Origin: a virus
Taxonomy: Duplodnaviria > Heunggongvirae > Uroviricota > Caudoviricetes
Direction: 5' to 3' (one strand)
Virus record (IMG/VR): IMGVR_UViG_2526164646_000008
Location: 1-32,339 of that record
Length of the DNA: 32,339 nucleotides
Shown: positions 24,334 through 24,577 of the stretch, piece after piece
Layout of the letters: each line of letters opens with the position of its first letter
Position numbering within the stretch: the stretch's first letter is position 1
Made by a program: the position numbers and the translations under genes
Notes under the pieces: model-generated
What the model saw: the letters and a program-made list of their open reading frames with translations, nothing else
The model's database searches: none
Told to the model about the DNA's origin: nothing

Positions 24334-24577
24334 TTTGCCCCCAATTTGCCCCATTTAGTACCAGAGAACTGAAATAATGCAAGAAAATCAACAAATTACA
24401 AAGAAAGAACAATACAACCTGAACAAGTAAGGGCAAAAATCACAACTATCTGACTCATAAGTATTTTATTTATTTTTCAATATGTTAAACATTATCAGCG
24501 ACAACAATAAGCTACGATAACCCACTCTTTTTTGCCCCTTTTTTGCCCCTTATACAGCGTTTTGCCCCATTTTTGCC
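24334..24577 (+). repeat. attP-like region: five direct TTTGCCCC repeats (2 + 3) flanking an AT-rich centre, immediately 3' of int
   Basis: TTTGCCCC at 24334, 24345, 24531, 24542, 24561 (degenerate sixth at 24572); arrangement resembles lambda P1-P2 / P'1-P'3 arm sites. Confidence 0.45.

Follow-up and report, generated by a model that had tools for sequence, protein, structure and literature searches.

A probable Rac-family attP beside a dead integrase gene, and a TGCCCC repeat layout found with related integrases

Introduction

What is a whole phage attachment site doing in a chromosome, directly behind an integrase gene that no longer encodes a working protein? The question is raised by a locus in a stretch of 32,339 nucleotides of phage DNA, here called the window; all positions are those of the window. 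An initial annotation had drawn attention to direct repeats around an AT-rich centre at the 3′ end of a destroyed integrase gene, and had likened the arrangement to that of the lambda site. The attP of lambda, known from Landy's work, has the arm-type sites P1 and P2 on one side of the core and P′1-P′3 on the other, together with sites for IHF, Xis and Fis, and is used by a heterobivalent integrase.

Inactivated integrase and excisionase genes

The damage to int and xis was determined with reference to the intact xisR-intR-attP region of Escherichia coli Jnd12. The segment upstream of the site contains the following features.

22577-22744, + strand: remnant of xisR, the excisionase gene (Pfam DUF1233, E = 6e-17)
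22746-22917, + strand: intR 5′ fragment, codons 1-57 (int nt 1-172), 95% identical to Jnd12 intR
22918-23685, − strand: IS1, 768 bp, in place of 422 bp of intR; transposase open reading frame at 22933-23436
about 23684-24325, + strand: intR 3′ fragment, int nt ~595-1236, catalytic domain, 96.2% identical to Jnd12 intR

Positions 22572-22917 correspond to xisR from nt 44 onward followed by int nt 1-172. Homology to the Jnd12 xisR begins at nt 44; the first 43 nt are gone, lost to an IS3-family element that adjoins the remnant upstream. The 57-codon intR fragment matches PF12167 (Arm-DNA-bind_2; E = 4.8e-20, profile positions 1-53 of 65) and represents most of the arm-binding domain. Intact IntR displays the N-terminal PF12167 arm domain (E = 4e-26) together with PF00589. 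The 3′ fragment is 97% identical to that of phage Rac-SA53, and the intR DNA of the window is 96-97% identical to that of Rac-SA53 and many E. coli. No target-site duplication was seen when the IS1 ends at 22918 and 23685 were inspected. Destruction of int by IS1 plus an internal deletion, as originally annotated, is thus an accurate description: 422 bp are missing and the 768-bp IS1 stands in their place. Both IntR and XisR are dead here, and the site is inert without proteins supplied from elsewhere.

Identity of the attachment site

Alignments with the ends of known Rac prophages indicate that positions 24326-24582 are very probably a complete, unrecombined attP (P′-core-P) of a Rac-family lambdoid prophage. 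The elements between the two groups of repeats are as follows.

24377-24430, + strand: phage-borne mimic of the ttcA 5′ end, an ATG and 17 codons (MQENQQITKKEQYNLNK) and then a stop; matches the K-12 ttcA start
24386-24398, + strand: the one match (AATCAACAAATTA) to the IHF consensus WATCAANNNNTTR, on the P′ side of the core
24401-24426, no strand assigned: core, the common region for strand exchange, AAGAAAGAACAATACAACCTGAACAA; 26 bp, identical in K-12 attL and attR

Positions 24290-24426 align colinearly with the K-12 Rac attL on its intR side, and positions 24401-24600 with the phage side of the K-12 Rac attR, beside the ttcC pseudogene. The two K-12 Rac ends have a single stretch in common, AAGAAAGAACAATACAACCTGAACAA, and the 26-bp feature annotated as 'attP' in phage Rac-SA53 (KU052037) is exactly positions 24401-24426. 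In Jnd12, the equivalent of 23684-24582 (int nt 595-1236 plus the attachment region) is 96% identical. An attP-like architecture is therefore borne out: the left side matches a Rac attL, the right side a Rac attR, and the core lies between the repeat clusters. Intact relatives, whose comparison had been proposed with the first description, have their att core at exactly the same place between the clusters.

Rac inserts in the 5′ end of ttcA and replaces its N-terminal codons (PMC4632033). The same study shows that XisR shifts a 294-bp attR fragment, and it places the Rac core in ttcA (PMC4632033). The mimic in the window is identical to codons 1-17 of K-12 ttcA, and the core sits inside it. 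The lone IHF match also falls in this coding-derived sequence and is a consensus match only. Inspection of the core by eye for core-type inverted repeats and an overlap region yielded none that could be defined.

The site is of an ordinary kind, the attachment site of a well-known prophage family. The K-12 Rac att sites and the Rac-SA53 attP are 93-100% identical to it and have the same 26-bp core, the ttcA mimic and the int and xis genes. The window differs from K-12 Rac in that the two halves are joined as a chromosomal attP and that int and xis are inactivated. An ordinary attL can be ruled out, as homology to K-12 attL ends at 24426 and is followed by the phage P arm, not by ttcA. A scan of IMG/VR detected 80 near-identical IntR loci, all of which are cut at int or are of the attL type; those with enough flanking sequence are all attL-type, unlike the window.

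Direct repeats in the two arms

The repeated motif, TTTGCCCC, is found on the + strand starting at 24334, 24345, 24531, 24542 and 24561. The arms are arranged as follows.

24334-24341 and 24345-24352, + strand: P′ arm, two copies of TTTGCCCC, 11 bp from start to start; putative IntR arm-type sites
24531-24579, + strand: P arm, four sites in two pairs (24531 and 24542; 24561 and 24572), with 11-bp phasing in each pair
24430-24437, − strand: inverted near-copy, TTTGCCCT, which adjoins the core

The fourth site of the far arm, at 24572-24579, is the degenerate TTTGCCAT; its register matches that of a perfect TTTGCCCC in phage PHB10. Spacing in the far cluster is 11/19/11. The clusters lie at ~60-80 bp (P′) and 118-166 bp (P) from the centre of the core. 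Five direct repeats had been reported in a 2 + 3 arrangement; the five perfect copies are there, and the layout is better described as 2 + 4 when TTTGCCAT is counted. Two other parts of that description are confirmed. The centre, ~180 bp at 24353-24530, is AT-rich, with a G + C content of 29% as against 50% for the whole window, and the repeats are directly 3′ of int, whose reading frame stops at 24325, 8 bp ahead of the first repeat.

Elsewhere in the 32.3 kb, TTTGCCCC is found once, at 14196 on the − strand. In 100 dinucleotide-preserving shuffles of the window the motif averages 1.34 copies and never reaches six. For the TGCCCC hexamer the chance expectation is ~0.075 per 244 bp per strand. 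Chance or low complexity as the source of the repeats is ruled out by the shuffles and by the presence of the repeats in 10 or more independent attP sequences. The inverted TTTGCCCT is missing at the equivalent place in six phages whose integrases are 42-44% identical to IntR.

A perfect 11-nt inverted repeat, GGTTATCGTAG/CTACGATAACC, is present at 24315-24325 and 24512-24522, each arm 9 bp 5′ of the first TTTGCCCC of its cluster. It has 1 mismatch in K-12, and a counterpart is not evident in PHB10. The chance expectation for such a repeat is ~1-2% in a region of this size.

Conservation of the repeats among integrase relatives

Every relative examined has a layout of pair, core and pair, even at 31% integrase identity and whatever the target gene, and the integrases of all relatives tested carry PF12167. 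One such relative is PHB10, whose integrase is 69% identical to IntR. Here TTTGCCCCT and ATGCCCCT come straight after int and are followed by a ttcA-type core; four repeat copies are found ~100 bp past the core, and the intervening DNA is diverged. The four P-arm sites of PHB10 are 84% identical as against 49% for the remainder of the arm. In the P arm of O157 Sakai Sp10 the corresponding values are 97% and 71%.

Bacterial genomes, one per species, were surveyed for integrases 45-70% identical to IntR. These come from Enterobacter, Citrobacter, Hafnia, Pluralibacter, Leclercia, Silvania and a Photobacterium. At the int stop codon all keep two copies of [A/T]TGCCCC with an 11-bp spacing; in two of the relatives the pair is present only as degraded variants (e.g. 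GTCCC/TGCCCC). In the Enterobacter, Leclercia and Silvania relatives (50-52% identity) the TGCCCC pair is followed by start codons that we take to be those of rstB and add. These rstB- and add-like starts are ~60-130 bp past int. If the two assignments are right, this branch of integrases has repeatedly taken the 5′ end of a protein-coding gene as its target and probably supplies a replacement for it, as Rac does for ttcA. Since the pairs of some of the relatives precede quite different sequences, the motif goes with the integrase and not with ttcA.

More distant integrases, 42-44% identical, are those of a Stx1-converting phage, Salmonella phage FSL SP-016, E. coli phages phi330 and IdasGreatGrand, Klebsiella RCIP0034, Enterobacter CobraSix and Aeromonas AsXd-1. 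Six to seven of these phages each have two TGCCCCA copies, spaced 11 bp, at the 3′ end of int, with 2-4 further copies 207-226 bp downstream in unchanged orientation. The far cluster of the Stx1 phage is spaced 11/20/11, compared with 11/19/11 in the window. Its record has an annotated 7-bp 'attachment site' between the clusters and a 'repeat_region' over the far cluster.

The most distant example is phiCTX, with an integrase that is 31% identical to IntR and carries PF12167. A GTTCCCA pair is found at +45/+56, the annotated attP core at +118 to +147 and a second GTTCCCA pair at +218/+229.

The annotators of the Stx1 phage and of phiCTX had noticed the repeats: the putative arm sites are covered by the 'repeat_region' at 2367-2405 of GenBank NC_004913 (Stx1 phage) and by 'R1,R2 repeats' at 2021-2271 of GenBank AB008550 (phiCTX). 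The records do not tie them to the integrase.

Function of the repeats

The TGCCCC repeats are most likely IntR arm-type sites that are read by the N-terminal domain of the integrase. The grounds for assigning them to this domain are the family-wide conservation of the motif and the presence of PF12167, an arm-binding domain. The integrase group corresponds to the 'IntBPP-1' subgroup of Smyshlyaev et al., in which DUF3596 is the arm-binding domain (PMC8138268). We found no paper that defines the arm sites of the IntBPP-1 group, none that describes these repeats or IntR arm sites, and no solved structure that covers an IntR-type N-terminal domain. The arm sites of KplE1/IntS were considered as a model and set aside, as they belong to another family and have a TAAA-containing motif.

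The repeats might instead be sites for XisR, a recombination directionality factor of the DUF1233 type. Phased direct repeats are common binding sites of such factors, a DUF1233 gene adjoins int in most of the relatives examined, and the 294-bp attR fragment that XisR shifts should take in the P-arm repeats (PMC4632033). Yet both arms have the repeats, even the one nearest int, which becomes part of attL, and the motif accompanies PF12167 integrases over the range of 31-100% identity. The same layout is present in phiCTX, where one adjacent small open reading frame tested, orf42, is without a PF06806/DUF1233 match. The AT-rich 100 bp between the core and the P repeats would still be free for XisR. 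A role of the repeats as excisionase sites thus appears unlikely.

A third reading makes the repeats promoter or operator elements for the hybrid ttcA or for sitABCD, the transporter genes downstream. The P′ pair does sit between the int stop and the ttcA-like start codon, and a weak promoter-like match at 24573-24600 overlaps the last repeat; such matches, however, are no commoner than in shuffles. The repeats also accompany integrases with other targets (rstB and add as read here, and the Stx1 and phiCTX sites), and the P arm is found next to cargo of unrelated kinds: ynaM/ydfK in K-12, an SOS peptidase gene in PHB10 and nleG in Sp10. A coding or promoter origin, which had been named as a possible objection, was thus checked, and the repeats are not tied to ttcA or to the sit element. 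We consider a promoter function highly improbable.

As putative arm-type sites of IntR, the repeats invite comparison with known phage systems. Like lambda attP, the Rac site is ~250 bp long, AT-rich and directly 3′ of int, with the shorter arm on the int side and with repeated arm motifs, unrelated to the core, on both its sides. The differences are several. The arm-binding domain is PF12167 in Rac and PF09003 in lambda; the motif is TGCCCC in Rac and C/AAGTCACTAT in lambda. All strong Rac copies are in one orientation, the sites number 2 + 4 in comparison with 3 + 2 in lambda, and the Rac core lies in the 5′ end of a protein-coding gene. The suggestion that the repeats mirror lambda P1-P2 and P′1-P′3 is correct in so far as both arms have repeats, but the layout, with the smaller cluster int-proximal, is closer to that of P2, 186 and phiCTX. 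P2 and 186 have phased pairs on each side of the core (PMC3448106). Their attP has two direct repeats per arm, to which Rac adds a second pair in the long arm. The motifs differ as well: TGTGGACA in P2, a GCCAC-type motif in 186, GTTCCCA in phiCTX and TGCCCC in Rac.

A model for the working of the site can be proposed from these comparisons. IntR would be a heterobivalent tyrosine integrase whose PF12167 N-terminal domain binds the TGCCCC repeats, one pair on the short int-proximal arm and two pairs on the long arm, while its C-terminal domains would bind and cut inside the 26-bp core. Together with DNA-bending host factors, of which IHF may be one, the resulting intasome would recombine the core with the identical codons 9-17 of ttcA. 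As attP brings its own start codon and 17 ttcA-like codons, ttcA would be left intact by integration. XisR, known to bind the attR fragment, would direct excision.

Part of this concerns the family as a whole and is a modest addition to what is known, namely a prediction of the arm motif and its arrangement in PF12167 integrases. Earlier work has already defined the core and the binding of XisR; the arm repeats, as far as we found, seem undescribed. The prediction is that PF12167 integrases have TGCCCC pairs 11 bp apart, one int-proximal and one or two ~200 bp away. The group includes Rac and many Shiga-toxin phages, and no earlier description of such sites was found for it. The arm sites predicted in this way would help to draw attP boundaries and to engineer PF12167 integrases.

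Tandem prophages as the source of a chromosomal attP

The site can be viewed as a joint between prophages, because an integrated prophage should have attL, not attP, beside int. In lambda dilysogens, two prophages occupy one attB head to tail, and the joint between them is a full attP. In E. coli, clusters of tandem prophages arise when phages use a common attB (PMC8112680). The attP of the window is probably likewise the internal joint of two head-to-tail prophages at ttcA, in an array whose ends are outside the window. The upstream unit would have tail genes first, then kilR, recE and xis, and would finish with int; the downstream unit would begin with sitABCD cargo and tail-fibre genes, and the site would still be attP as it was never the joint used for insertion. 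The genes on each side of the site are in phage order: upstream come tail genes (1-828), the kilR region, recE, gam, xis and int; downstream, sitABCD is followed by tail-fibre assembly genes on the opposite strand. What differs from tandem lambdoid lysogens is that both units here are heavily decayed and that the joint outlives its integrase.

Complete E. coli genomes (5426) were searched for the site and its junctions, with these counts.

Any match to the 257-bp attP query: 2925/5426 genomes, usually at two sites per genome, as would fit attL plus attR
Whole attP in one piece: 38/5426 genomes
Core, P arm and sitA contiguous: 502/5426 genomes
int 3′ end, attP and sitA, as in the window: 7/5426 genomes

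Where checked, the contiguous core-P arm-sitA segment adjoins uspF and there forms the ordinary attR of a ttcA prophage with sit cargo. In the window-like genomes, five of the seven of which were examined, int is reduced to its last 231 bp. E. coli strains H22, A21, ERP001, N31 and Z247 have a common int truncation point (equivalent to position 24094) and common P′ changes; the window has more of int and the canonical P′ pair. Since the int truncation and the state of P′ differ from those of the window, the joint appears to be old and to have decayed independently in different lineages.

The attP might also have come about without a tandem insertion, either as a single, circularly permuted phage integrated by another route (another integrase, or IS-mediated or homologous recombination) or by a rearrangement that rebuilt P′-core-P. 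The window is rich in IS elements, through which rearrangements could have come about, and the expected ends of an array (uspF-ttcC-core-P and int-P′-core-ttcA) are beyond it. A downstream unit in Jnd12, moreover, stops at a different integrase by rspB. Against this, the array of strain H22 adjoins uspF at the ttcA locus and has a second sit copy, a frameshifted remnant, upstream of what is left of int; each unit thus has its own sit copy, one on either side of the int′-attP segment. In ~500 genomes the junction of P arm and sit is the usual attR of prophages inserted at ttcA, and a precise P′-core-P is unlikely to form except by site-specific or homologous exchange between att sites. An origin other than by tandem insertion is accordingly given a minor share of the probability, and the joint of two prophages at ttcA is preferred.

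In Jnd12 (NZ_CP095820, 2.62-2.71 Mb) there is a live xisR-intR-attP joint between a Rac-like unit and a second complete lambdoid unit, and this downstream unit ends at the different integrase beside rspB. The composite array suggests recombination between Rac-site and Qin-site prophages. As it ends at rspB, the simple tandem picture can be blurred by later rearrangement.

As a joint of this kind, a whole chromosomal attP would be a marker of past tandem lysogeny at ttcA. It would also show how sitABCD came to stand behind a dead integrase in this lineage.

Persistence of the site and possible use in trans

The statement that the site is kept even though its recombinase is gone is correct as a description. 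Evidence for selected retention was not found, and nothing observed goes beyond neutral persistence. Over its whole length, attP in dead-int E. coli genomes is 95-98% identical to that of the window. Five such copies have two common changes in the P′ pair (TTTGCCCT and ATGCCCC) and zero changes in the P-arm sites. Among dead-int E. coli genomes, the substitutions are too few to separate selection, drift and recency as regards decay or constraint of the repeats. The simplest reading is that persistence of this 250-bp non-coding segment in a recently IS-ridden genome is neutral.

It is possible, although rather unlikely, that the chromosomal attP is still a live substrate for IntR and XisR acting in trans. 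Such use is conceivable because the six arm sites and the core match those of active Rac, and because IntR and the integrases of Stx phages have the TGCCCC motif in common. IntR and XisR could then be supplied by a second Rac-type prophage or a superinfecting phage, and a heterologous PF12167 integrase might help via its arm-binding domain. Either unit, for example that carrying sitABCD, could be excised as a circle, or an incoming phage could be docked at the site. A 'dead' island of virulence genes would then be conditionally mobile, and the 11-bp-phased TGCCCC pairs would be an arm code of the PF12167 (IntBPP-1) group that allows cross-talk in polylysogens.

Flanking sequences

The attachment site is followed by these segments.

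24583-24809, + strand: mosaic boundary and sit operon leader; K-12/Jnd12 Rac homology ends at 24582
24810-28234, + strand: sitABCD, an iron/manganese transporter, cargo of the downstream unit

In Perceval and phage 21, lambda-like phages whose integrases are different, the similarity starts no earlier than 24590. As Rac homology stops right after the last repeat, the attP module of ~250 bp appears to be a unit of mosaic exchange.

The sitA gene is frameshifted and is represented by two overlapping open reading frames, 24810-25406 and 25355-25699; sitB, sitC and sitD (25699-28234) look intact. Matches to the broken SitA fragment were confined to short contigs from read assemblies. On the other side, the IS load of positions 1-23700 is very high and includes two IS1 elements, several of the IS3 family and an IS110-family fragment; by this load the source may be a Shigella-like Escherichia. 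The upstream unit also has a truncated recE (15890-17314), a homologue of lambda Gam (18556-18924), an AAA_24 protein (20134-21294) and a Rha-family regulator (12038-12670).
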